Part shown: one piece after another, positions 1-50,893 of the stretch
How the letters are laid out: each line of letters opens with the position of its first letter
Numbering within the stretch: the first letter of the stretch is position 1
Source: a virus
Taxonomy: Duplodnaviria; Caudoviricetes
Virus record (IMG/VR): IMGVR_UViG_3300037400_003033
Location: 747 to 64,746 of that record
DNA length: 64,000 nucleotides
Reading direction: 5' to 3' (one strand)
Translations under genes and position numbers: made by a program
The notes under the pieces: model-generated
The model's input: only the letters and a program-made list of their open reading frames with translations
Told to the model about the DNA's origin: nothing
Database searches by the model: none

Positions 1-82
1 TTATCTCACGTTCCTAGAAAGAATAAAGGAGATTCTTATGAAGTATACAGTATTCTAACTTAAAATTAGTTAGGAGAAAAAT

Positions 83-850
83 ATGAGTAGAAGCTTTAAG
101 AAAAAACCTTATCATTCTATTTGCAAATCTAGAGGCGATAAATGGTGTCGCCAACAGTATCATAAAGAACGCAGACAGAAAGATAGGAGATTGTGTAAAG
201 AAATGGAAGGTCGTATTGATAAAGAACTTCTTTACAATGATCGTTGCTTTCTTTGCACAAAAGATGGTGTTCAGCCTGAAGAAAAGTTTATCAACGAAAA
301 CATTGATTATTCTTTGAGATTCGCTGATAAATGGGGTTGGTCATCAGATGGAGGAAATTACTATTGGGGCGGCAAAGATGAATACCGCAGAGATTTTGAA
401 AGACAAATCTTTGGCTTAGATTATAAGTATGGTATTAAGCGTCAGTCCCTTTGGGAAAAATACAAGGATTACGTTGATTTGGTTTATAATGAAGATAAGC
501 CACTTTATACAGTAGTTCTTAAAAGAGTAGTTATAGAAAAAGTAAATTGGGGTTTTTACATGCCTTGGAGTTCTGAATTTGCAGGTAAACGCAAAGAAGA
601 AAAGAAGTATATAACTACTGAGATTTATCCTCCAAAATATAAGCCTGAAGAAGGTTGGGAGATAATTCATTGGTGGAAACGAAAAAATTATCTTCTTAGT
701 CTTTCTAATTGGGATTTGTTTGGGTTTTTGTTTAGAAGTAGAATTATTCCGCTTAATTTCAAAAACGAAAAACAATTGGTTGATTGGTTCAGAGAAAACG
801 AAGAAACAATCATTGAAAAATGGATGAGAGCTTTCTTGTTGAGAAAGTAA
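83..850 (+). CDS. Hypothetical phage protein (255 aa, basic N-terminus)
   Basis: ORF with AGGAG RBS; no recognised motif. Confidence 0.8.
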   Translation: MSRSFKKKPYHSICKSRGDKWCRQQYHKERRQKDRRLCKEMEGRIDKELLYNDRCFLCTKDGVQPEEKFINENIDYSLRFADKWGWSSDGGNYYWGGKDEYRRDFERQIFGLDYKYGIKRQSLWEKYKDYVDLVYNEDKPLYTVVLKRVVIEKVNWGFYMPWSSEFAGKRKEEKKYITTEIYPPKYKPEEGWEIIHWWKRKNYLLSLSNWDLFGFLFRSRIIPLNFKNEKQLVDWFRENEETIIEKWMRAFLLRK

Positions 851-852
851 TC

Positions 853-881
853 TTGACAAAAAATAATTTGTGTTTTATAAT
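853..881 (+). promoter_or_regulatory. Sigma70-type promoter for leader 1 / tRNA cluster 1
   Basis: TTGACA (853-858), 17 nt, TATAAT (876-881). Confidence 0.9.
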
Positions 882-913
882 ATAGTCACAAGTTAAATTA
901 AAAGGAAAACAAA

Positions 914-1012
914 ATGAAAAATTCTTGGAATAATTACAGTGCAGATTCTCTCATTATTGCGACACTTAATAGTGGCGTATCGTATGAACCTGCCTATGAT
1001 CCAAGAACGTGA
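914..1012 (+). CDS. Leader peptide 1 (32 aa, MKNSWNNYSADSLIIATLNSGVSYEPAYDPRT)
   Basis: AAGGA RBS, ATG 914, TGA 1010-1012; between promoter and terminator ahead of tRNA cluster; not in ORF track. Confidence 0.8.
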   Translation: MKNSWNNYSADSLIIATLNSGVSYEPAYDPRT

Positions 1013-1066
1013 CGGAAGCTGAGTTTATTATATAAAGGCTTCTGACGCAAATCAGAAGCCTTTTTT
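1013..1066 (+). terminator. Attenuator 1: intrinsic terminator with overlapping antiterminator
   Basis: AAAGGCTTCTGA-cgcaaa-TCAGAAGCCTTT plus T run (1034-1066); CGGAAGCT (1013-1020) can pair with GGCTTCTG (1037-1044). Confidence 0.8.
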
Positions 1067-1071
1067 ATTTT

Positions 1072-1154
1072 CGGTTCGTGGTGAAATTGGCAGCACACGC
1101 TAGACTTAGGATCTAGTGCCGCGAGGCGTGAGAGTTCGAGTCTCTCCGAGCCGA
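1072..1154 (+). tRNA. tRNA-Leu(TAG)
   Basis: Cloverleaf, CTAGA-CTTAGGA-TCTAG anticodon arm, long variable arm, GTTCGAGTC T-loop. Confidence 0.95.
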
Positions 1155-1163
1155 CTAACATTT

Positions 1164-1236
1164 GGGATATTGGTAAAATGGTGCATACGCCTGACTGTCA
1201 CTCAGGAGAGCGCGGGTTCAATTCTCGCATATCCCG
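1164..1236 (+). tRNA. tRNA-Asp(GTC)
   Basis: GGGATAT/ATATCCC acceptor; CCTGA-CTGTCAC-TCAGG. Confidence 0.95.
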
Positions 1237-1244
1237 CTACTTAT

Positions 1245-1329
1245 TGGTAGGTGTGCCGAATGGCTGAAGGCAGCGGACTGTAAATCCGTGACATCAGAAA
1301 CGTTGGGGGTTCGAGTCCCTCCCTGCCAA
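1245..1329 (+). tRNA. tRNA-Tyr(GTA)
   Basis: TGGTAGG/CCTGCCA acceptor; GCGGA-CTGTAAA-TCCGT; long variable arm. Confidence 0.95.
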
Positions 1330-1338
1330 CTAAAATTT

Positions 1339-1409
1339 GGGTTAGTAGTAAAATGGTTATACAGCGGACTGTTAATCCGTAGACGCAGGTTCAATTCCTG
1401 CCTAGCCCG
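1339..1409 (+). tRNA. tRNA-Asn(GTT)
   Basis: GGGTTAG/CTAGCCC; GCGGA-CTGTTAA-TCCGT. Confidence 0.95.
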
Positions 1410-1415
1410 CTTTAT

Positions 1416-1488
1416 CTGTGTGTGGGAGAGCGGTTAATCCACTTGTTTTGGGAACAAGGCTTCGTAGGTTCGAGTCCTACCATACAGA
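1416..1488 (+). tRNA. tRNA-Pro(TGG)
   Basis: CTGTGTG/CATACAG; CTTGT-TTTGGGA-ACAAG. Confidence 0.92.
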
Positions 1489-1593
1489 CTACCCCCGAGT
1501 TGGGCGGGATTAGGTATACAATACCCAACGACAATTACTCTTTGCAAAGAGAGTGCGGTCTTTCACATTCTACCTAATGAATGTGAGCATTTT

Positions 1594-1681
1594 GGAGTAT
1601 TGAGTTAGCGGCTATACGGGCGGTCTTGAAAACCGTTGACATGCGATGAGCGTGGCGCAAGTTCGAGTCTTGCATACTCCG
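1594..1681 (+). tRNA. tRNA-Ser(TGA)
   Basis: GGAGTAT/ATACTCC; GCGGT-CTTGAAA-ACCGT; long variable arm. Confidence 0.95.
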
Positions 1682-1813
1682 CTAAGATTAAAGCGCCTTT
1701 GATGGGATTCTCTAATTAGCCCATCAATTAAAACTAAATGGCAACGCGCTAGTTAGATGTATAAGTTGAGCATTTGGTAAGCAAAGGTTCTGCAAGGTCG
1801 CCTTTGGTTTTTT

Positions 1814-1887
1814 GGGACGGTAGTTCAATTGGCTAGAATACGTGATTTGTAATCATGAGGTTGGGGGTTCGATTCCCTCGCCTTCCG
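1814..1887 (+). tRNA. Atypical tRNA: TGT (Thr) anticodon on a tRNA-Ala-like body, imperfect acceptor stem
   Basis: 5' part identical to the tRNA at 1984 except anticodon TGT vs TGC; acceptor GGGACGG/GCCTTCC with G3-U70 and two mismatches. Confidence 0.65.
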
Positions 1888-1983
1888 AAAAAATGACTCC
1901 CCGTTTCTTGCGCAGAAACTTGAATGAGTAAAAATCGAAAGGTTTAACCGAACTTTATTCTAGGTAAAGATGTAGGTAATTTT

Positions 1984-2057
1984 GGGACGGTAGTTCAATT
2001 GGCTAGAATACGTGATTTGCAATCATGAGGTTGGGAGTTCGATGCTCCCCCGCTCCA
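1984..2057 (+). tRNA. tRNA-Ala(TGC)
   Basis: CGTGA-TTTGCAA-TCATG; G3-U70 pair; A73. Confidence 0.9.
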
Positions 2058-2063
2058 CTAAAT

Positions 2064-2219
2064 CCAAGCGTAACAGTTTGGGGCGTTTGGTTAATGAAGT
2101 ATGTTAGATCTTTTCGGGCAAACTGAACCGATACGTTTACACTCGGCAGTAATAACATCGAGGAGTGCAAACGGAACAAAACTAACTAGTCGTATGACGT
2201 CTGCGACGATAAACCCGAA
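2064..2219 (+). ncRNA. Putative structured ncRNA, unknown class
   Basis: Helices CCAAGCG/CGTTTGG, TTCGGG/CCCGAA enclosing CGTTTACACTC/GAGTGCAAACG. Confidence 0.45.
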
Positions 2220-2231
2220 CACCTTTTTTAT

Positions 2232-2302
2232 GGGCCGTAGATGGCGAGGTGCCATGTCTCTTTTGCAAGGAGAATTAGCGGGTTCGACTCCCAACGTGTC
2301 CA
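2232..2302 (+). tRNA. Atypical tRNA-Ala(TGC)-like element
   Basis: TCTCT-TTTGCAA-GGAGA; GTTCGACTC T-loop; bulged acceptor with G3-U70 and A73; D arm ATGGC/GCCAT. Confidence 0.55.
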
Positions 2303-2347
2303 CTAAACTAACATCTTAAAAAAGTTAATATTATTGAGGATTTTAAT

Positions 2348-2719
2348 ATGTTAGATAAAAAACAAGCAGAGAAAATAAGTCAATGGACAAACCATCAGCA
2401 AGTGCTGATGAAGTATGGACAATTTGCAAAATCTTCTTTAACAAAAGAAGAAGTTAAGACTCTTCGCCCTGAAAGAGACGAAAAGTTTATTAACAGTGTT
2501 ATCCTTACACCTTGTGTTATTTGTATGACACCTAATGAAACAGAAGACAGATTCTATCCAGAATTTTGGCTTCAAGTAAAAGGATGGTACGGACAAGACA
2601 AATCTTGGGTATGTTTTTCTCCTAATGGAAAGGAAGAGATAAAAACATTTTTGAAGATTGCTAAAAAACATCTTTCTTCTGCTACAATTAAAGAGGAAGT
2701 AAATTACTTCCCTTACTAA
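2348..2719 (+). CDS. Hypothetical protein with C-terminal YFPY tag (putative head-packaged)
   Basis: GAGGA RBS; ends IKEEVNYFPY; AAGTTAA motif upstream. Confidence 0.85.
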   Translation: MLDKKQAEKISQWTNHQQVLMKYGQFAKSSLTKEEVKTLRPERDEKFINSVILTPCVICMTPNETEDRFYPEFWLQVKGWYGQDKSWVCFSPNGKEEIKTFLKIAKKHLSSATIKEEVNYFPY

Positions 2720-2724
2720 TTTTT

Positions 2725-2808
2725 GGAAGTGTGGCTGAATTGGCAAAAGCACCAACCTGCTAAGTTGGGTACCTTCGGGTAATGCACGGTCGGAACGTGT
2801 CACTTCCG
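2725..2808 (+). tRNA. tRNA-Ser(GCT), non-canonical T-loop
   Basis: GGAAGTG/CACTTCC; CCAAC-CTGCTAA-GTTGG; T-loop GTCGGAA. Confidence 0.88.
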
Positions 2809-2812
2809 TATA

Positions 2813-2872
2813 GGCAAAAAGAGTTCCTATTTAAAGAGAAATTGGGTTATTTCACAGTAATACTCTTCGCCA
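2813..2872 (+). ncRNA. Small RNA motif copy A (GGCAAAA..GTTCCTAT..TCGCCA)
   Basis: Shares ends and a covarying helix with copy at 4782-4843. Confidence 0.5.
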
Positions 2873-2877
2873 ATTAT

Positions 2878-2950
2878 GCGTTATTAGTGTTAGCGGCTAG
2901 CACGGCTGCCCTCCAAGCAGCAAGCCTCAGTTCGAATCTGTGATAGCGCT
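2878..2950 (+). tRNA. tRNA-Gly(TCC)
   Basis: GCGTTAT/ATAGCGC; GCTGC-CCTCCAA-GCAGC; U73. Confidence 0.92.
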
Positions 2951-3056
2951 CTAAGTGGTACTCTTAGAAATAAGAGCATTGGGAAAGCTTCTAAGGTGCA
3001 GAGCCTTAGCGGAACGGTTAAGACAATATGTGGGGATTCATAGACCGTTCGTTGAT

Positions 3057-3130
3057 GGGAGTGTGGCTACAATGGTACAGCAGCGGTCTCCAAAACCGCC
3101 ATTCTGCACGTTCGAATCGTGCCGCTCTCG
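3057..3130 (+). tRNA. tRNA-Trp(CCA)
   Basis: GGGAGTG/CGCTCTC; GCGGT-CTCCAAA-ACCGC. Confidence 0.93.
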
Positions 3131-3134
3131 TAGA

Positions 3135-3163
3135 TTGACAAAATTTTACTTTCGTGGTAAAAT
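3135..3163 (+). promoter_or_regulatory. Sigma70-type promoter, extended -10
   Basis: TTGACA-17-TAAAAT with TG at -15/-14. Confidence 0.85.
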
Positions 3164-3206
3164 TAAGCCATAAGGAAAACAAGTATTCCTTTAACCAAAA
3201 ATACTT

Positions 3207-3460
3207 GCGGTTGTAAGACCTAAGAAACCCTTTGCTTGTTTGGGTGGTGAGAAACAGGTCGCGCCCTAGCGTAGCAGGCGTTATGTGTAATCGTAAACAC
3301 TTCGGAGGAATTGGTTGTCCCAACGTTAGTATAAGCGGCTGGTTACCGTAAAACCATTATTTTATAAAACAATTCAGCTTCTAGTGGCTAACGCACAAAT
3401 CTCTGTTAGCGTTCCTACTTTAACGATAGGTAGGCAAGACCTTCGGCAAATTACAATTCG
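3207..3460 (+). ncRNA. Putative large multibranch ncRNA, unknown class
   Basis: Closing TTGTAA/TTACAA helix and at least six internal hairpins; no ORF with RBS; directly after a promoter. Confidence 0.55.
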
Positions 3461-3481
3461 GTAAAGTTGCCAAACTTTTAT

Positions 3482-3569
3482 GGGTTAGTCAGTTAATATG
3501 GACTAAGCTCCGCCAATGAAAACCTACAATGGACGGGCGGGAATGTGGGTTCAAGCCCCATCTAATCCA
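3482..3569 (+). ncRNA. tRNA-like RNA with Ala-type acceptor and no canonical anticodon loop
   Basis: GGGTTAG/CTAATCC (G3-U70), A73, T arm GTGGG-TTCAAGC-CCCAT, CCGCC/GGCGG stem around a 21-nt loop. Confidence 0.65.
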
Positions 3570-3639
3570 TCTTATTACACTAAAAAATGTATAGTAGGAG
3601 GATACTATACTTGGCAGGTTAGAAATAATCTGCCATCAT

Positions 3640-3712
3640 GGTTCTTAGGACAAAAAGGTTGAGTCGCCACCCTTTCAAGGTGGAGGAGTGGGTTCGATCC
3701 CCGCAAGAACTA
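3640..3712 (+). tRNA. tRNA-Glu(TTC)
   Basis: GGTTCTT/AAGAACT; CCACC-CTTTCAA-GGTGG. Confidence 0.9.
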
Positions 3713-3936
3713 TCGGGAGAAAATCCAATAAGTCGCTCGGAGTAATCGACGAAAATTACGCGCGTTAAAGTAGTTGATGAATTATACGAGAGTGCTACCC
3801 TGATTAAAGGTAGTGGTGGAAGTTGTCGGCGGATAACGTTCATGCCACCTAAATAAAGGCTTACGCAAACCCTTAAGGGATAAGCCAGAAAATGATAAAG
3901 GTATACTGTAAGTTTCACCACACAGGACTTTCCCTT
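3713..3936 (+). ncRNA. Putative structured ncRNA, unknown class
   Basis: Hairpins GTCG/CGAC, CTACC/GGTAG, GGTGG/CCACC, GGCTTA/TAAGCC. Confidence 0.45.
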
Positions 3937-4012
3937 CGAGGTGTATCCCCTCACTCTGATAAGGTGTTGAAAGGGTAGTTGGTTCAGGCAGGTTCAACTC
4001 CTGCGACCTCGA
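3937..4012 (+). tRNA. Atypical tRNA-Ile(GAT)-like element lacking a D arm
   Basis: CGAGGTG/GACCTCG acceptor, CACT-CTGATAA-GGTG, T arm GCAGG-TTCAACT-CCTGC, CTA trailer. Confidence 0.55.
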
Positions 4013-4046
4013 CTAAACCCATTAAGCGATTGGGTAAACACATCGC

Positions 4047-4075
4047 TTGACAAATTTCATTCTTTATGATAAGAT
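4047..4075 (+). promoter_or_regulatory. Sigma70-type promoter
   Basis: TTGACA-17-TAAGAT with extended TG. Confidence 0.75.
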
Positions 4076-4098
4076 AATTACATAAAGAATTTATTCGT

Positions 4099-4175
4099 TT
4101 CGGGTTGGAGCACTGGTTGTGGCTCACCAGCCTCATAAGCTGGACATCGGGACTGTTCGATTCGGTCACCCGAGA
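4099..4175 (+). tRNA. tRNA-Met/Ile2 (CAT)
   Basis: TTCGGGT/ACCCGAG; CCAGC-CTCATAA-GCTGG; lacks the three G-C anticodon-stem pairs of initiators. Confidence 0.85.
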
Positions 4176-4227
4176 CCTTGCTAGATAACTTAGTAAAGAA
4201 GTATTGCGGGGATAGGCTCCCGACGAG

Positions 4228-4298
4228 AAGGAAATGGTGTAAGAGTAACACAGTAGCCTGGGGGGCTAACGTTTCGGATTTACGACCCGATTTCCGAG
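4228..4298 (+). tRNA. Degenerate tRNA-Pro(GGG)-like element
   Basis: D arm GTGT/ACAC, TAGC-CTGGGGG-GCTA, non-canonical T-loop TTTACGA, 5-bp acceptor. Confidence 0.45.
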
Positions 4299-4323
4299 GG
4301 CTAGTTGATTAAGTTATCGAACT

Positions 4324-4500
4324 TGCTACACGAAGAAAGTGTTGTCTGACTTTTATTGGACAATCGGTCACCGTCTTTTATCAGACCCTGATGGTAGCAT
4401 TTTACGACAACCTGAATAGGCGGTGAATTGTGGTTGTCATTGTCTAGAAATGGCGGTTGAAGACCTTAAAAGAGAAGTGGCTTTGCCACTTCTTATCGCC
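4324..4500 (+). ncRNA. Putative structured ncRNA, unknown class
   Basis: TGCTAC/GTAGCA, GACAAC/GTTGTC, AGAAGTGGC/GCCACTTCT helices. Confidence 0.4.
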
Positions 4501-4533
4501 CGCTTACAAGTTAATTTTATAGGAGAAAAGAAT

Positions 4534-4638
4534 ATGTTTACAACAGTATTTACCAAGACAGTTAAAACTACTCATAAACAGCACACAGTCTTTATGTGTA
4601 AACATATTGCTGAGTCTTCAGGAGAAAATATCAAGTGA
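4534..4638 (+). CDS. Leader peptide 2 (34 aa, MFTTVFTKTVKTTHKQHTVFMCKHIAESSGENIK)
   Basis: AGGAG RBS then ATG 4534 (track ORF 4423-4638 is over-extended); followed by terminator and tRNA cluster 2. Confidence 0.85.
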   Translation: MFTTVFTKTVKTTHKQHTVFMCKHIAESSGENIK

Positions 4639-4667
4639 CGATGTAGAAAAAACTTGTATTTTGTTTT

Positions 4668-4699
4668 GAAGGCTTAGTAGAAATACTAAGCCTTTTTTT
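4668..4699 (+). terminator. Attenuator 2 terminator (antiterminator partner at 4608-4619)
   Basis: AAGGCTTAGTA-gaaa-TACTAAGCCTT plus T run; TGCTGAGTCTTC pairs 12 bp with GAAGGCTTAGTA. Confidence 0.85.
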
Positions 4700-4706
4700 A
4701 TTTTAT

Positions 4707-4777
4707 CCGCAGGTTGCATAATGGTAGTGCTTTGGACTGAAGATCCAAAAGTTGGGGTTCGATTCCCTGTCTGCGGG
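4707..4777 (+). tRNA. tRNA-Phe(GAA)
   Basis: CCGCAGG/TCTGCGG; TTGGA-CTGAAGA-TCCAA. Confidence 0.9.
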
Positions 4778-4781
4778 CTAT

Positions 4782-4843
4782 GGCAAAAGGTGTTCCTATG
4801 CTGATGAAGCAATACACTGTTAATGTATCTATACACCTCGCCA
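4782..4843 (+). ncRNA. Small RNA motif copy B
   Basis: Related to 2813-2872; has ATACA-CTGTTAA-TGTAT hairpin with an anticodon-like loop. Confidence 0.5.
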
Positions 4844-4848
4844 AATTT

Positions 4849-4919
4849 GCTGAGTGGTAGGACGGCTCCTATTCCCCCTCATAAAGGGAAGAAACTTTGG
4901 TCGGCACAAAGATTCAGTA
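4849..4919 (+). tRNA. Atypical tRNA (CAT anticodon; Met or Ile2), non-canonical T-loop
   Basis: GCTGAGT/ATTCAGT; loop CTCATAA; T arm CTTTG-GTCGGCA-CAAAG. Confidence 0.6.
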
Positions 4920-4922
4920 TAC

Positions 4923-4996
4923 GGGCTCATAGCTCAATTGGATAGAGCAACGCCCTTTTAAGGCGTGGGTTCCCAGTTCAATCCTGGGTGGGCTCA
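4923..4996 (+). tRNA. tRNA-Lys(TTT)
   Basis: Canonical cloverleaf; ACGCC-CTTTTAA-GGCGT. Confidence 0.95.
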
Positions 4997-5003
4997 TTTG
5001 CAT

Positions 5004-5075
5004 TTCTCCGTGGTGTAATCGGTAGCACAAGGCACTCTGGATGCCTTGGTTTGGGTTCGAGTCCTAGCGGAGGAA
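5004..5075 (+). tRNA. tRNA-Gln(CTG)
   Basis: AGGCA-CTCTGGA-TGCCT. Confidence 0.93.
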
Positions 5076-5078
5076 TAT

Positions 5079-5151
5079 GTGAGTATGGTATAATGGATAG
5101 TGCCTTTGGCTACGAACCAAATGAACGGGAGTTCGATTCTCTCTACTCACG
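5079..5151 (+). tRNA. tRNA-Arg(ACG)
   Basis: GTGAGTA/TACTCAC; TTTGG-CTACGAA-CCAAA. Confidence 0.93.
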
Positions 5152-5157
5152 CAATTT

Positions 5158-5229
5158 CGTTCTCTAACTCAATGGTAGAGTGCCGCCCTTACAAGACGGA
5201 GGTTGTAGGTTCAAGTCCTACGGGAACGA
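5158..5229 (+). tRNA. tRNA-Val(TAC)
   Basis: CGTTCTC/GGGAACG; loop CTTACAA. Confidence 0.93.
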
Positions 5230-5231
5230 CT

Positions 5232-5304
5232 GTATCCATAGTGTTAGCGGTTAGCACAAAAGATTGTGGATCTTTTAGGATGGGTTCGAATCCCATTGGA
5301 CACA
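5232..5304 (+). tRNA. tRNA-His(GTG), no encoded G-1:C73
   Basis: AAAGA-TTGTGGA-TCTTT; base -1 is T, base 73 is A. Confidence 0.9.
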
Positions 5305-5308
5305 CTAT

Positions 5309-5380
5309 CGGCTATTAGCTCAACGGTAGAGCAGCACACTCTTAATGTGAATGTTGTAGGTTCAAATCCTATATAGCTGA
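5309..5380 (+). tRNA. tRNA-Lys(CTT)
   Basis: CGGCTAT/ATAGCTG; loop CTCTTAA. Confidence 0.92.
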
Positions 5381-5390
5381 CTTATTTTAT

Positions 5391-5463
5391 GCCGTCATAG
5401 CTCAATTGGTAGAGCACCTGACTTGTAATCAGGGGGTTGTAGGTTCGAGACCTATTGGCGGCT
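5391..5463 (+). tRNA. tRNA-Thr(TGT)
   Basis: GCCGTCA/TGGCGGC; CCTGA-CTTGTAA-TCAGG. Confidence 0.95.
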
Positions 5464-5466
5464 CAA

Positions 5467-5537
5467 TGCTCGCGACATTGCTGGGTAGTGGCTGGTCTGC
5501 AAAACCAAGAGGCACGGTTCGATTCCGTGGCGGGCTT
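5467..5537 (+). tRNA. tRNA-Cys(GCA)
   Basis: loop CTGCAAA; T arm CACGG-TTCGATT-CCGTG. Confidence 0.85.
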
Positions 5538-5541
5538 TCTC

Positions 5542-5570
5542 TTGACTTTTTAATCCTTTCTTGATATAAT
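5542..5570 (+). promoter_or_regulatory. Sigma70-type promoter
   Basis: TTGACT-17-TATAAT. Confidence 0.8.
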
Positions 5571-5601
5571 ATAATAAATCTTAACATTCAGGGGTAAAAT
5601 T

Positions 5602-6042
5602 ATGAGTAATGCTTATAACGATTGGAAAAAGGATATGGAATCATATACCAAGTTTTTCAAAAGGGGCGATAAAGCATTTAAGGGTATTTGCTATAAAGAT
5701 GATTATTGCACTGACGGAATGAATTACGAATTCTGTGATTTGTTGGTAAAGGATGTTGTTGTTCACAAACAGATTACACATACTGAAAAACTTCCACCAC
5801 TTGAAGAAGAAAAATTAGCAAATTTTGAAGACACTTTCAAAGTTCTTATTGTTCAAGTTGGAACCTCTTCAAGAAATCCTGATGGAACCTATGACGAGCA
5901 TTATGAAAAAACTCTTTATGTTTTCCATAACGATTGGTTAATGTCAGACGGAAAAGATTTGTTTGTTGTTGACGAACACTACATTAAAGAGTGGACTGAA
6001 ATCACTGAGCAGGAGTATGTTAAGATAAATAAAGGAGATTAA
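5602..6042 (+). CDS. Hypothetical protein
   Basis: 146-aa ORF after promoter. Confidence 0.8.
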   Translation: MSNAYNDWKKDMESYTKFFKRGDKAFKGICYKDDYCTDGMNYEFCDLLVKDVVVHKQITHTEKLPPLEEEKLANFEDTFKVLIVQVGTSSRNPDGTYDEHYEKTLYVFHNDWLMSDGKDLFVVDEHYIKEWTEITEQEYVKINKGD

Positions 6043-6408
6043 ATGTCAGACGAACAAAAAAAGTATGTTCAAGACTTCACAAGTGGAGACGATGAAAAGA
6101 CGGGACTCGAAAAAAGAGTTATGAATTGTGAGGGTTTATCAACAGACGATAAACTTAAAATTATAAGAGCAATTGAAAAAAGTGGAGATTCTATTTTTGG
6201 TGTACCACCAGTATATAGTGAACCATTTAAACCAATTACTCAACAACCTTGGTGGGGCGGTTTACAAGTAACAACTAACGGTAATCATGTTGATCCTAAT
6301 CAGCCAGTTCTTTATAGAACTAGTGATGAAGATTTGTTTAGTACTACTGCAAATAATATATATATGCAACAAGACAAAAGTTGCAACGAAAATGGTGATA
6401 CAGACTAA
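6043..6408 (+). CDS. Hypothetical protein
   Basis: AGGAG RBS, abuts upstream gene. Confidence 0.8.
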   Translation: MSDEQKKYVQDFTSGDDEKTGLEKRVMNCEGLSTDDKLKIIRAIEKSGDSIFGVPPVYSEPFKPITQQPWWGGLQVTTNGNHVDPNQPVLYRTSDEDLFSTTANNIYMQQDKSCNENGDTD

Positions 6409-7043
6409 TGCTTTACTGTGAAAAATATATAAATAAAAAAATTGTTGCGAGACAAATTGTTTGTTGGCTCGCAACTGTTGTTTTGTTCTTAGGAACTTTC
6501 CTTGCGGGACATATAACCACAATAAAAAAAATTGGACAAGCATCTTTTACAGATTCTAAAACAATTGAAATTCCTATTGATTGGGAAAACCCTTATAAAG
6601 ATTTAGTAAGAGATGAAATTGCATATTACATAATAGAAGTTAACAAGCCAATGAAAGGCGATAATAATCTTGCGGTGGCGATTCTATTACACGAGAATCC
6701 AAAGCAAAACCCTTACGCTGTTAACGTAAATGCAAATGGAACAACTGATAATGGAATGTTCCAACTTAATTCTGCTTATCAACTTTACTTTGCTGGCTTA
6801 TACTGGCCTTTTGATAAGTATGATTCAAATATGAGTTTTGATTGGAGTAATTGGCAACACAACACTTGGGTTGCACTTCACTTAATCAACGACCTTTATA
6901 AAGATTTTGATGGCGATGTTGAAAAAGTAATTGCTGCTTATAACGCAGGGCCCGCGCCAGTCATAGCGGGCGATATTCCAAAGTCTACGATTGATTATCG
7001 AGATAGAATTTTAGCGATTTATACATTATTATGTAATTCATAA
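6408..7043 (+). CDS. Lytic transglycosylase (SLT domain) with N-terminal membrane anchor
   Basis: LHENP catalytic Glu, GMFQLNS, AAYNAGP motifs; N-terminal hydrophobic helix. Confidence 0.9.
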   Translation: MLYCEKYINKKIVARQIVCWLATVVLFLGTFLAGHITTIKKIGQASFTDSKTIEIPIDWENPYKDLVRDEIAYYIIEVNKPMKGDNNLAVAILLHENPKQNPYAVNVNANGTTDNGMFQLNSAYQLYFAGLYWPFDKYDSNMSFDWSNWQHNTWVALHLINDLYKDFDGDVEKVIAAYNAGPAPVIAGDIPKSTIDYRDRILAIYTLLCNS

Positions 7044-48811: not shown

Positions 48812-50812
48812 TTACTCTTCCTCTTCACTTAACAATCTTTCTTCTGTGATTAGTTCTTCACCCTTTCTAGTTTTAACTTTTTTATAAACTGAAAATGAAT
48901 CATTAGCAAAAGAAAGACCACCAAGTTCATTTTCATAATAAAGAGCCATTCCAGAATCATTAACTGCTTCAACTTCTTCTTTAATTAATAATTCTTTAAC
49001 TTTATTTATAAACTCATTATTTGAAAGCCCTTCCTCAACTTCTTCTTTTATAAGATTTGCCTCTTTTTCTTTTTGGTATTCTTCGTAGGCTTTCATTAAT
49101 TTAGAATAATCTTCCTTATGCTCAATAAGAATGTCTTTACCGAATGCTTTTACCATTACTTTTGGAGATAACTCTTCTGTTTGAACTGACATCATAGGTG
49201 CTGGAGCTGCTCCCATATCTGTTGGAGGCATTCCGCCTGCTCCCATATCTGCTGGAGGCATTCCGCCACCCATTCCCATTCCACCCATCATATCTCCGCC
49301 CATTCCACCTTGTTGAGCAGCAAGTGAAGCCATTTCGATATCTTTTTGAAGATTGATATCTGCAATTTCCTTCTTTGACATTTTCATTACATATTTAAGA
49401 ATAAAATCTTTAGGGAATAAATTAGTTCCAAGCATTGCAGAAATAAGAGAAATCTTTTGATTAAGATATTCAATATCCATAATCTCTTTAACGTTTGAAG
49501 GTGGTGTTAATTCAATTCTGAAATTCTTTAAATCTGCTTTTTTCTTTTTCTTAAAGAAAAGTTCAACTGCAGCAATTTTTGTAAGACCTTCTTCTATATA
49601 ATACTGAATACGTTCAATAAATCTAGCGAACTTAACATCCTGCATAGCAAGAGAGCCCTTTTGACCGCCCATTGCATTTCCATCAGAAGTAAATCCTAAG
49701 AACTCAGGTGGGATATTAAGTGTCCAAAGAAGCTCATCTCTAAACATTCTAATATCATCAATATTATTAAGACCCTGGCCAGGTTGTAATGTTGTAACTT
49801 CTGTACCTGCCTGCCCTTCTCTTGTAGGAATAAAGATATCCTGAGTAACTGAAAGAGCAGCCGCAGTTTTGTTAATATTTCCTTTATCATCCATTATTTG
49901 ATTTGAACGATAATTATTCTTTATTTTCTGTACATATCTATTTGCTTCATTAGTTGAAAGATTACCGCAGTCAATTTTAAATACTCTTCTTTCTGGTACA
50001 CGAGCCAAACGATAAATCATTACTGCGTCTTCAAGCATTGTATAACGTCTATAAGTTCTTACACCTGGGTCTAACAAAGAAAGTCCATAAGGTGCAAATT
50101 TTTTATTTGAAATCTTAAAATGAACTATCTGCCAAGGCTGAAGTTTATAAACAACTTCGTGATTCTTTTCGTCTTTTTCCATTACATTAGAATAGTCTGT
50201 ATCATCAAAAGCATCAGTTCTATAAGTGTAAAAAGCAAGTCTACCGTTCTTTTCTACACGATTTACTTTATCTGTTTTTAAGTATCTTATTCTAGCAACT
50301 TGTGTTGGATGTTCATAACTATCAGGAATAATCTCATAGAAGTTATCACCAAGTTTACAGGTTTCAATAAATATAGACCAAAGTTCTTTATTAAGGTTTA
50401 ATCTTACATGGAACAAATCGTCAAGTATATTTTTTATATCTTCATCGTTTGAATAAACCTTTACAGTATTACCTTCAACGTTTTTTTGTGTTCCATCATC
50501 TGCAATTGTTTGAAGACCTCTAGACAAGAATGGACAAGCAGCCATTTCTTCGTATGTATCATAATAAGCAGCTCTATTCTCTGGCGAAAGTCTATTATTT
50601 AATGTATTATTTTGAGAACCAAAAGCATCACCAAAACTATTAATACCACCGTCATAACCAAAGTTATTAAGGTTACTTGAGAGTTCTTTTTCTTCTTTTT
50701 TTGTAACTTCCGTTTTAGTTGTTTCTGGAAGTTCATTTATCGCATCTATTTTTTGCTGTATCTGTTGTGAATGTCTTAAATCTATAAATTGTTCTTTTCC
50801 GTTTTTAATCAC
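48812..50812 (-). CDS. Portal protein (T4 gp20-like)
   Basis: PYGLSLL, LEDAVMIYRLARVPERRVFKIDCGNL, DIFIPTREG..GTEVTTL, IDDIRMFRDEL. Confidence 0.95.
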   Translation of the reverse strand: MIKNGKEQFIDLRHSQQIQQKIDAINELPETTKTEVTKKEEKELSSNLNNFGYDGGINSFGDAFGSQNNTLNNRLSPENRAAYYDTYEEMAACPFLSRGLQTIADDGTQKNVEGNTVKVYSNDEDIKNILDDLFHVRLNLNKELWSIFIETCKLGDNFYEIIPDSYEHPTQVARIRYLKTDKVNRVEKNGRLAFYTYRTDAFDDTDYSNVMEKDEKNHEVVYKLQPWQIVHFKISNKKFAPYGLSLLDPGVRTYRRYTMLEDAVMIYRLARVPERRVFKIDCGNLSTNEANRYVQKIKNNYRSNQIMDDKGNINKTAAALSVTQDIFIPTREGQAGTEVTTLQPGQGLNNIDDIRMFRDELLWTLNIPPEFLGFTSDGNAMGGQKGSLAMQDVKFARFIERIQYYIEEGLTKIAAVELFFKKKKKADLKNFRIELTPPSNVKEIMDIEYLNQKISLISAMLGTNLFPKDFILKYVMKMSKKEIADINLQKDIEMASLAAQQGGMGGDMMGGMGMGGGMPPADMGAGGMPPTDMGAAPAPMMSVQTEELSPKVMVKAFGKDILIEHKEDYSKLMKAYEEYQKEKEANLIKEEVEEGLSNNEFINKVKELLIKEEVEAVNDSGMALYYENELGGLSFANDSFSVYKKVKTRKGEELITEERLLSEEEE

Positions 50813-50893
50813 TTCGAAACCTCGATCATCTTTTCTTTAATTAACTTGACAAAAAAACTACTTAGGTGTAAACTCTTGGCAAAGGAGAATAAG

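Follow-up and report, generated by a model that had tools for sequence, protein, structure and literature searches.

A candidate ribosome-mediated attenuator before a nine-tRNA cluster in a distant T4-like myovirus

The tRNA region and the leader-2 module

The window studied here, that is, the whole stretch of 64,000 nucleotides that was analysed, comes from an IMG/VR virus record of 64.7 kb that is estimated to be 28% complete. The presence of rIIA, tail sheath and portal genes marks it as a distant T4-like myovirus, and its portal is at most 31% identical to that of any cultured phage, so that it has no cultured relative. When positions 4000-5600 were compared with cultured phages by blastn, only tRNA-to-tRNA matches were obtained. 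Twenty-two tRNA genes lie on the plus strand within 1072-5539 (ARAGORN, including a relaxed run), and nine of them form cluster 2, which is preceded by a short open reading frame named leader 2. The features at this locus are the following.

4047-4075, plus strand: candidate sigma-70-type promoter (TTGACA, 17 nt, TAAGAT with TG), the nearest recognisable one upstream of leader 2
4099-4177, plus strand: tRNA-Met(CAT), upstream of leader 2; in relatives tRNA-Met sits within cluster 2
4182-4498, plus strand: conserved structured RNA of about 320 nt, lying after tRNA-Met(CAT) and directly upstream of the leader-2 module
4507-4525, plus strand: 5' UTR of the leader-2 module, with a CAAGTTAAT motif in common with leader 1 (889-897) and the Shine-Dalgarno (SD) sequence AGGAG at 4521-4525; invariant in seven copies
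4532-4607, plus strand: helix H1, 4532-4542 (including the ATG) with 4597-4607 (codons 22-25), predicted only without a ribosome on the leader
4534-4638, plus strand: leader-2 ORF, 34 codons plus TGA (ATG 4534-4536, TGA 4636-4638)
4537-4593, plus strand: putative sensor stretch, codons 2-20 of the ORF, FTTVFTKTVKTTHKQHTVF
4608-4679, plus strand: antiterminator of 27 bp (4608-4623 with 4664-4679, 4625-4630 with 4657-4662, 4632-4636 with 4652-4656)
4668-4706, plus strand: intrinsic terminator, 12-bp stem (4668-4679 with 4684-4695), GAAA loop and T7-A-T4 tract, adjoining tRNA-Phe (4707)
4707-5539, plus strand: tRNA cluster 2, in the order Phe(GAA), Lys(TTT), Gln(CTG), Arg(ACG), Val(TAC), His(GTG), Lys(CTT), Thr(TGT), Cys(GCA)

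The last gene of the cluster, tRNA-Cys(GCA) at 5466-5539, is reported by the relaxed ARAGORN run only, and it fits a TGT codon of the leader. A 145-nt spacer (4779-4922) between tRNA-Phe and the first tRNA-Lys is the site of tRNA-Met(CAT) in three relatives (L003, L020 and L008), the last of which also carries a tRNA-Ser there. Elsewhere in the tRNA region of the window there are several degenerate or unusual tRNA-like elements; a weak extra tRNA-Ala(TGC)-like call (relaxed ARAGORN) and a sub-threshold Rfam tRNA match (25.8 bits) fall at 2232-2301 and 3482-3569.

No recognisable promoter stands directly upstream of leader 2, and its transcript may start at the candidate promoter at 4047-4075 and run through tRNA-Met and the structured RNA. 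The latter has 92 predicted pairs, 18 of them with compensatory changes among five sequences, and no match in Rfam. On the plus strand, neither the gap between the terminator and tRNA-Phe nor cluster 2 itself contains a sigma-70-type promoter, so that cluster 2 would be expressed only through read-through of the terminator.

A third CAAGTTAAT motif is found in the window at 50812-50848 on the minus strand, 27 nt before the GTG start of the portal gene, and is followed by a mini-ORF of six codons (ATG ATC GAG GTT TCG AAG TGA) that overlaps the portal start. The related motif CAAGTTAAW / AAGTTAAWW was considered as a phage promoter and rejected, as it is not enriched over shuffles.

Codon content and alternative helices of leader 2

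Leader 2 encodes MFTTVFTKTVKTTHKQHTVFMCKHIAESSGENIK, with the SD sequence 8 nt 5' of the ATG and the end of the ORF 29 nt from the terminator. A reading made from the sequence alone had listed codons 1-24 of this ORF, and sequence and translation agree with that list. It had also pointed out that both AAA and AAG occur in the leader and that both Lys tRNAs follow, as they do (tRNA-Lys(TTT) starts at 4923 and tRNA-Lys(CTT) at 5309), and that CAG is matched by a CTG tRNA-Gln, which was found at 5003. The correspondence is broader than these examples. All 19 of codons 2-20 specify residues within the alphabet of the cluster-2 tRNAs (F, K, Q, R, V, H, T, C), an alphabet that makes up 34.8% of the residues in the long ORFs of the window; over codons 2-24 the count is 22 of 23 positions, with a binomial P of 1.3e-9 against this background of 0.348. 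No other run in the six frames of the 64-kb window is as long as these 19 residues; the runs that come next have 12, and several of them are of low complexity. When these 57 nt were shuffled 200,000 times at matched composition, 17 of 19 was the maximum and none reached 19. Read in their other two frames, these 57 nt give only 7 and 3 residues in the alphabet, so the signal is specific to the reading frame. The ORF, its SD sequence and this alphabet match are thus established in the present analysis.

Codons 22-24 (C, K and H; TGT AAA CAT) are not counted as free sensor codons, because they are perfectly complementary to ATGTTTACA and engage in a helix that covers the start codon. The match between leader and cluster also has exceptions in the window: cluster 2 contains a tRNA-Arg, yet leader 2 has no Arg codon, and leader 2 contains a Met codon, yet there is no tRNA-Met in cluster 2. 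Moreover, the ACC and GTC codons of the leader need four-way wobble by U34 tRNAs. Pfam and NCBIfam searches with the peptides of both leaders identified no family. An Rfam search of positions 1-7000 of the window with E up to 1 gave no Thr_leader, His_leader, Leu_leader, Trp_leader, Phe_leader, T-box or other cis-regulatory family, and the only match over the leader region was sroB, at chance level (E = 0.42, below the gathering score).

The window also contains a paralogue of leader 2, named leader 1, which is organised as follows.

853-1070, plus strand: leader-1 module, with a consensus promoter, a 32-codon ORF (914-1012), an antiterminator (1013-1020 with 1037-1044) and a terminator (1034-1063) that lies 8 nt before tRNA-Leu

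The two leaders have in common a CAAGTTAA 5' motif and a terminator core, AAGGCTT...AAGCCTTTTTT. In the leader-1 peptide, 26 of 31 residues fall within the alphabet of cluster 1 (P = 0.008). When only the residues exclusive to one alphabet or the other are counted, leader 1 divides 24:3 and leader 2 divides 0:12 (Fisher P = 1.2e-7); the two alphabets are nearly disjoint, and each fits its own cluster.

The RNA of leader 2 can adopt two mutually exclusive structures, both of which use positions 4668-4679. One is the terminator, whose hairpin and U-run occupy 4668-4702, at -16.5 kcal/mol; the other is the antiterminator, at -30.5 kcal/mol, whose 5' strand consists of the final ORF codons and extends one base into the stop codon. 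The sequence-only reading had placed a 12-bp antiterminator in codons 25-29. Its location was right, since TGCTGAGTCTTC at 4608-4619 covers the third base of codon 25 through the second base of codon 29 and pairs with GAAGGCTTAGTA at 4668-4679; its extent was underestimated, for these 12 pairs (four of them G-U) are one part of a competing helix of 27 bp that joins 4608-4636 to 4652-4679. When the complete leader is folded, the structure of minimum free energy (z = -3.7) contains the antiterminator. Adding the 5' arm of the terminator to the leader changes the folding energy by -20.0 kcal/mol, a gain that none of 500 mononucleotide shuffles attained (mean -3.4, sd 2.1). The terminator and the two exclusive helices, together with their significance, are therefore results of this work. 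On the other hand, leader 2 has no strong 1:2 protector or pause helix of the kind that makes an untranslated leader terminate, the only candidate being a weak pairing of 4580-4590 with 4609-4617 that lies within 1 kcal/mol of an alternative. Helix H1 comprises 11 pairs and is invariant across copies. In leader 1 the antiterminator begins right after the stop codon, and its pairing was matched by 2 of 500 shuffles.

Two mutually exclusive helices are all that would be needed for a switch operated by an RNA-binding factor (uncharged tRNA as in a T-box, a protein or a metabolite), in which the ORF would be incidental, and the tRNA region is indeed rich in structured RNAs. We consider a switch of this kind highly improbable, given that no T-box or other riboswitch family appeared at E up to 1, that SD, start, frame and stop of the ORF are all conserved, and that the alphabet signal depends on the frame (19 vs 7 and 3).

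Conservation and natural variants among relatives

IMG/VR provided only one close relative. Further relatives, which are animal-gut metagenome contigs of up to 233 kb, were reached through homologues of the ORF at 83-850 (40-98% identity) and of the ORF at 5602-6042, and a pattern scan of metagenomes added four. Together they give ten copies of leader 2 with five distinct peptides, in all of which the SD sequence, ATG, frame and TGA are invariant. The ORF has undergone two indels, both of 3 nt, while indels of 1, 1, 2 and 3 nt occur in the SD spacer and in the loop. A longer ORF that would start from a GTG (4423-4638) was considered and discarded, as 1-nt spacer indels break it upstream of the ATG in L008 and L033. 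The leader-2 module as a whole keeps about 93% DNA identity, vs 61-89% amino-acid identity for the flanking proteins.

Among the changes within the ORF, four are synonymous at the third position, codon 7 occurring in three synonymous forms and codons 19, 20 and 25 having one change each. All five of the replacements at sensor codons stay within the alphabet of the cluster, namely V10T and H17C (two base changes each), H14Q, the loss of Q16, and R in place of QH. In L033 the leader's Arg codon is CGC, and the genome has a tRNA-Arg(ACG). Similarly, the tRNA-Met that is found within cluster 2 of relatives is a match to Met codon 21. The leaders of L003 and L020 use CAA for Gln, where the tRNA-Gln of the cluster is CTG.

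Pairing in the antiterminator is kept in 97.5% of cells across the copies; in six pairs one partner has changed with the pairing retained (GGA to AAG facing UUU, for instance), and pairing is lost only at two terminal pairs in one lineage. The position of the stop codon inside the antiterminator helix is conserved. With this, conservation of both frame and pairing is established for leader 2. No double compensatory change was observed in the leader-2 helices across copies, because the relatives are too close. In the case of leader 1, the antiterminator and the terminator arm covary: a C-G pair in the window and in L013 is replaced by U-A in L008 and L006, and L036 has the intermediate C.A. True compensatory change in support of the alternative pairing is confined to this paralogue, and leader 2 itself provides none.

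Some natural variants bear on the purpose of the module. In the lineage of L004 (about 75% identity in a flanking protein), the cluster-2 tRNAs have been lost, and the ORF and the 5' strand of the antiterminator have been lost by a separate deletion; the terminator is kept, directly after the structured RNA, and is followed by remnants of tRNA sequence (region 12655-13016 of L004). The structured RNA is also retained in this lineage. These losses would be expected if the sole purpose of the ORF and the antiterminator were to let transcription pass the terminator into the tRNAs. The same arrangement can be viewed otherwise, with the hairpin as the terminator of the upstream structured RNA, leaky to a degree that lets the tRNAs be made, and the ORF either untranslated or coding for an unrelated small protein, for instance a beta-strand-prone peptide of Thr, Val, Phe and Lys. 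L004, where the terminator directly follows the structured RNA without a leader, agrees with such a view, as does the fact that Thr, Val and Phe are typical beta-formers. It is nevertheless quite improbable in our judgement. The chance that six distinct residue types would all fall in a set of 8 out of 20 is 28/38760 (7e-4), and a plain terminator gives no reason to expect either a 27-bp helix that sequesters its arm or the conserved place of a stop codon inside that helix. Moreover, the replacements H to C and QH to R are non-conservative for a folded peptide, yet they remain within the tRNA alphabet; the peptide belongs to no Pfam or NCBIfam family; and L004 lost the ORF and the antiterminator along with its tRNAs, which argues that they serve the tRNAs.

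In L006 (45% identity) a single leader precedes one merged tRNA cluster and its peptide mixes both alphabets, a match without significance because the merged set is so large. The succession of promoter, UTR motif, short ORF, terminator and tRNA-Leu recurs in L011 (41%), with a different peptide and terminator. Of the leader-1-type peptides of distant relatives, that of L011 has no alphabet match (14/24) and that of L008 matches its cluster weakly (21/32). In L029 an endonuclease-like ORF takes the place of the genes from Phe through Lys, leader 2 is unchanged, and tRNA-Thr and tRNA-Cys remain; in L012 the clusters have been fused by a deletion, and an unchanged leader 1 stands before Leu-Val-His-Lys-Thr. 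Codon-by-codon co-variation of leader and tRNA set could not be demonstrated among these relatives, as leaders change more slowly than tRNA sets, and the rearranged sets behind unchanged leaders in L029 and L012 indicate that no co-variation takes place on short time scales. It was also observed that in L029, where the leader-2 terminator lies at 4290-4483 on the minus strand, the downstream ORF is homing-endonuclease-like and is preceded by the same motif, ACAAGTTAAT, as the leader modules.

Ribosome position and a proposed attenuation mechanism

The effect of a ribosome on the fold was modelled at equilibrium by masking the RNA to 11-15 nt past the A-site codon, which is the footprint assumed here. 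With the ribosome at codons 25-35 (including the stop), the model gives the full 12-bp terminator, and at codons 14-21 it gives the antiterminator with zero terminator pairs. At codons 2-13, two states are predicted within 1 kcal/mol of each other (-36.4 vs -35.5, terminator vs antiterminator), an ambiguity that arises because 4580-4590 can pair weakly with 4609-4617. Without a ribosome, the antiterminator and the start-codon helix are predicted, which would make read-through the default state, unlike in trp. It had been proposed from the letters of the sequence that stalling in the sensor codons frees the antiterminator in exactly the classical attenuator geometry. The first part of this proposal agrees with the model for codons 14-21, while codons 2-13 are left ambiguous; the second part does not hold, given that a strong 1:2 protector is absent, the ribosome-free default is read-through, stalls favour the antiterminator without ambiguity at codons 14-21 only, and the helix has 27 bp. 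Leader 2 would therefore, according to the folding model, act in an attenuator-like manner, but with an open default and without the strong protector helix of trp.

The best-supported reading, with which composition statistics, folding statistics and comparative data agree at the level of sequence and model, is that leader 2 controls the nine-tRNA cluster at 4707-5539 as a transcription attenuator operated by ribosomes and feeds the supply of tRNAs back on their transcription; we give it a probability of roughly 0.7. Transcription would enter from upstream and a ribosome would load at AGGAG and the ATG. When the codons for Phe, Thr, Val, Lys, His and Gln (and Cys) are decoded fast, the ribosome would reach the last codons and the TGA and cover 4608-4651, which contains the 5' strand of the antiterminator. 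With that strand masked, 4668-4679 would pair with 4684-4695 and RNA polymerase would stop 5-10 nt before tRNA-Phe. If, on the contrary, the ribosome stalls in the sensor codons (most clearly at 14-21), or if no ribosome has loaded, 4608-4636 would be free to pair with 4652-4679 once the latter is made, a presumed kinetic order of folding in which the terminator would be blocked and the tRNA genes transcribed. The outcome would be negative feedback, in which short supply of the tRNAs that decode these codons turns on the phage copies and restored supply turns them off.

Since the predicted ribosome-free fold contains the antiterminator and the start-codon helix, loss of translation alone would open the gate, and each amino acid is represented by just 1 to 7 codons, far below the his or phe leaders. 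It could thus be argued that leader 2 reports only whether translation is running, terminating when it is active and allowing read-through at shutdown, with the alphabet playing no part in sensing. This simpler account is unlikely, as it leaves unexplained why 19 of 19 sensor codons lie in the alphabet of the downstream cluster, why leader 1 has the complementary alphabet, and why the replacements in relatives all stay within the alphabet. The proposed design has partial counterparts among known systems.

T-box riboswitches bind uncharged tRNA directly, with no need of translation, and choose between terminator and antiterminator before translation-related genes. Leader 2 would likewise join tRNA status to the choice of a terminator, but it has a conserved ORF and no T-box motif. 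In the attenuator of pheST with its pheM leader, stalling at codons that a single tRNA species reads acts through a terminator on a gene needed for translation. The pheL leader of pheA is likewise an attenuator leader (PMC3082878). pheM and pheL sense one amino acid by a run of Phe codons, and pheST encodes a synthetase, whereas leader 2 uses a mixed alphabet and would regulate tRNAs. Multivalent attenuators are found in enterobacteria, where the thr leader responds to Thr/Ile and the ilvGMEDA leader to Ile/Leu/Val, the general principle being described in PMC1183508. Leader 2 resembles these in having a short leader ORF, codons for several amino acids, a terminator before the first regulated gene and an antiterminator that is predicted to depend on ribosome position. 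It differs from them in that it would regulate phage tRNA genes instead of biosynthetic enzymes, its codons match the tRNAs encoded downstream, for six to eight amino acids at once, it lacks a strong 1:2 protector so that the untranslated state would be read-through, and it has no relation to an Rfam leader family.

Phage tRNA genes have usually been explained by codon-usage matching and, lately, as decoys or replacements against tRNA-cleaving defences, and tRNA-Lys, which is present in cluster 2, is a target of anticodon nucleases. A full-text search of the literature, to which older work on the tRNA regions of phages T5 and T4 is external, gave no account of leader-peptide control of tRNA genes. 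Phage tRNA arrays have been described as a counter-defence against tRNA-cleaving immunity that replaces depleted or cleaved host tRNAs (PMC11555353); the portion of that source considered here concerns tRNA function and describes no demand-sensing control of tRNA transcription.

If the attenuator reading is true, a leader written in the alphabet of its own tRNAs would constitute a direct, demand-driven feedback on tRNA supply, and the logic of classical attenuation, familiar for amino-acid synthesis, would be applied to the decoding machinery as such. Ready-made controls are at hand in the division into two alphabets and two clusters, in the lineages with natural deletions and in the variable in-frame spot. 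Should the design be general, the tRNAs that a phage expects to be scarce in its host could be predicted from sequence only. A more speculative extension, which we hold as tentative, is that leaders 1 and 2 together serve as an alarm for tRNA depletion, each sampling codon by codon the decoding capacity for half of the genetic code and opening its own tRNA block only upon depletion or cleavage of the corresponding host tRNAs, such as anticodon nucleases or host shut-off might cause. The tRNAs would then be an inducible, self-limiting counter-defence and not a constitutive supplement, and the hypervariable codons 14-17 (HKQH, QKC, HKQC and HKR) might tune which tRNAs are most closely watched.

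Additionally, relatives encode a phage tmRNA with tags ending in AMAA or ALVA, about 0.4 to 2 kb upstream of the homologue of ORF 83-850 (L003 6950-7352, L006 9228-9629, L008 8239-8641, L010 7635-7963 and L012 6820-7149), and the window begins downstream of the position that this tmRNA occupies in them.
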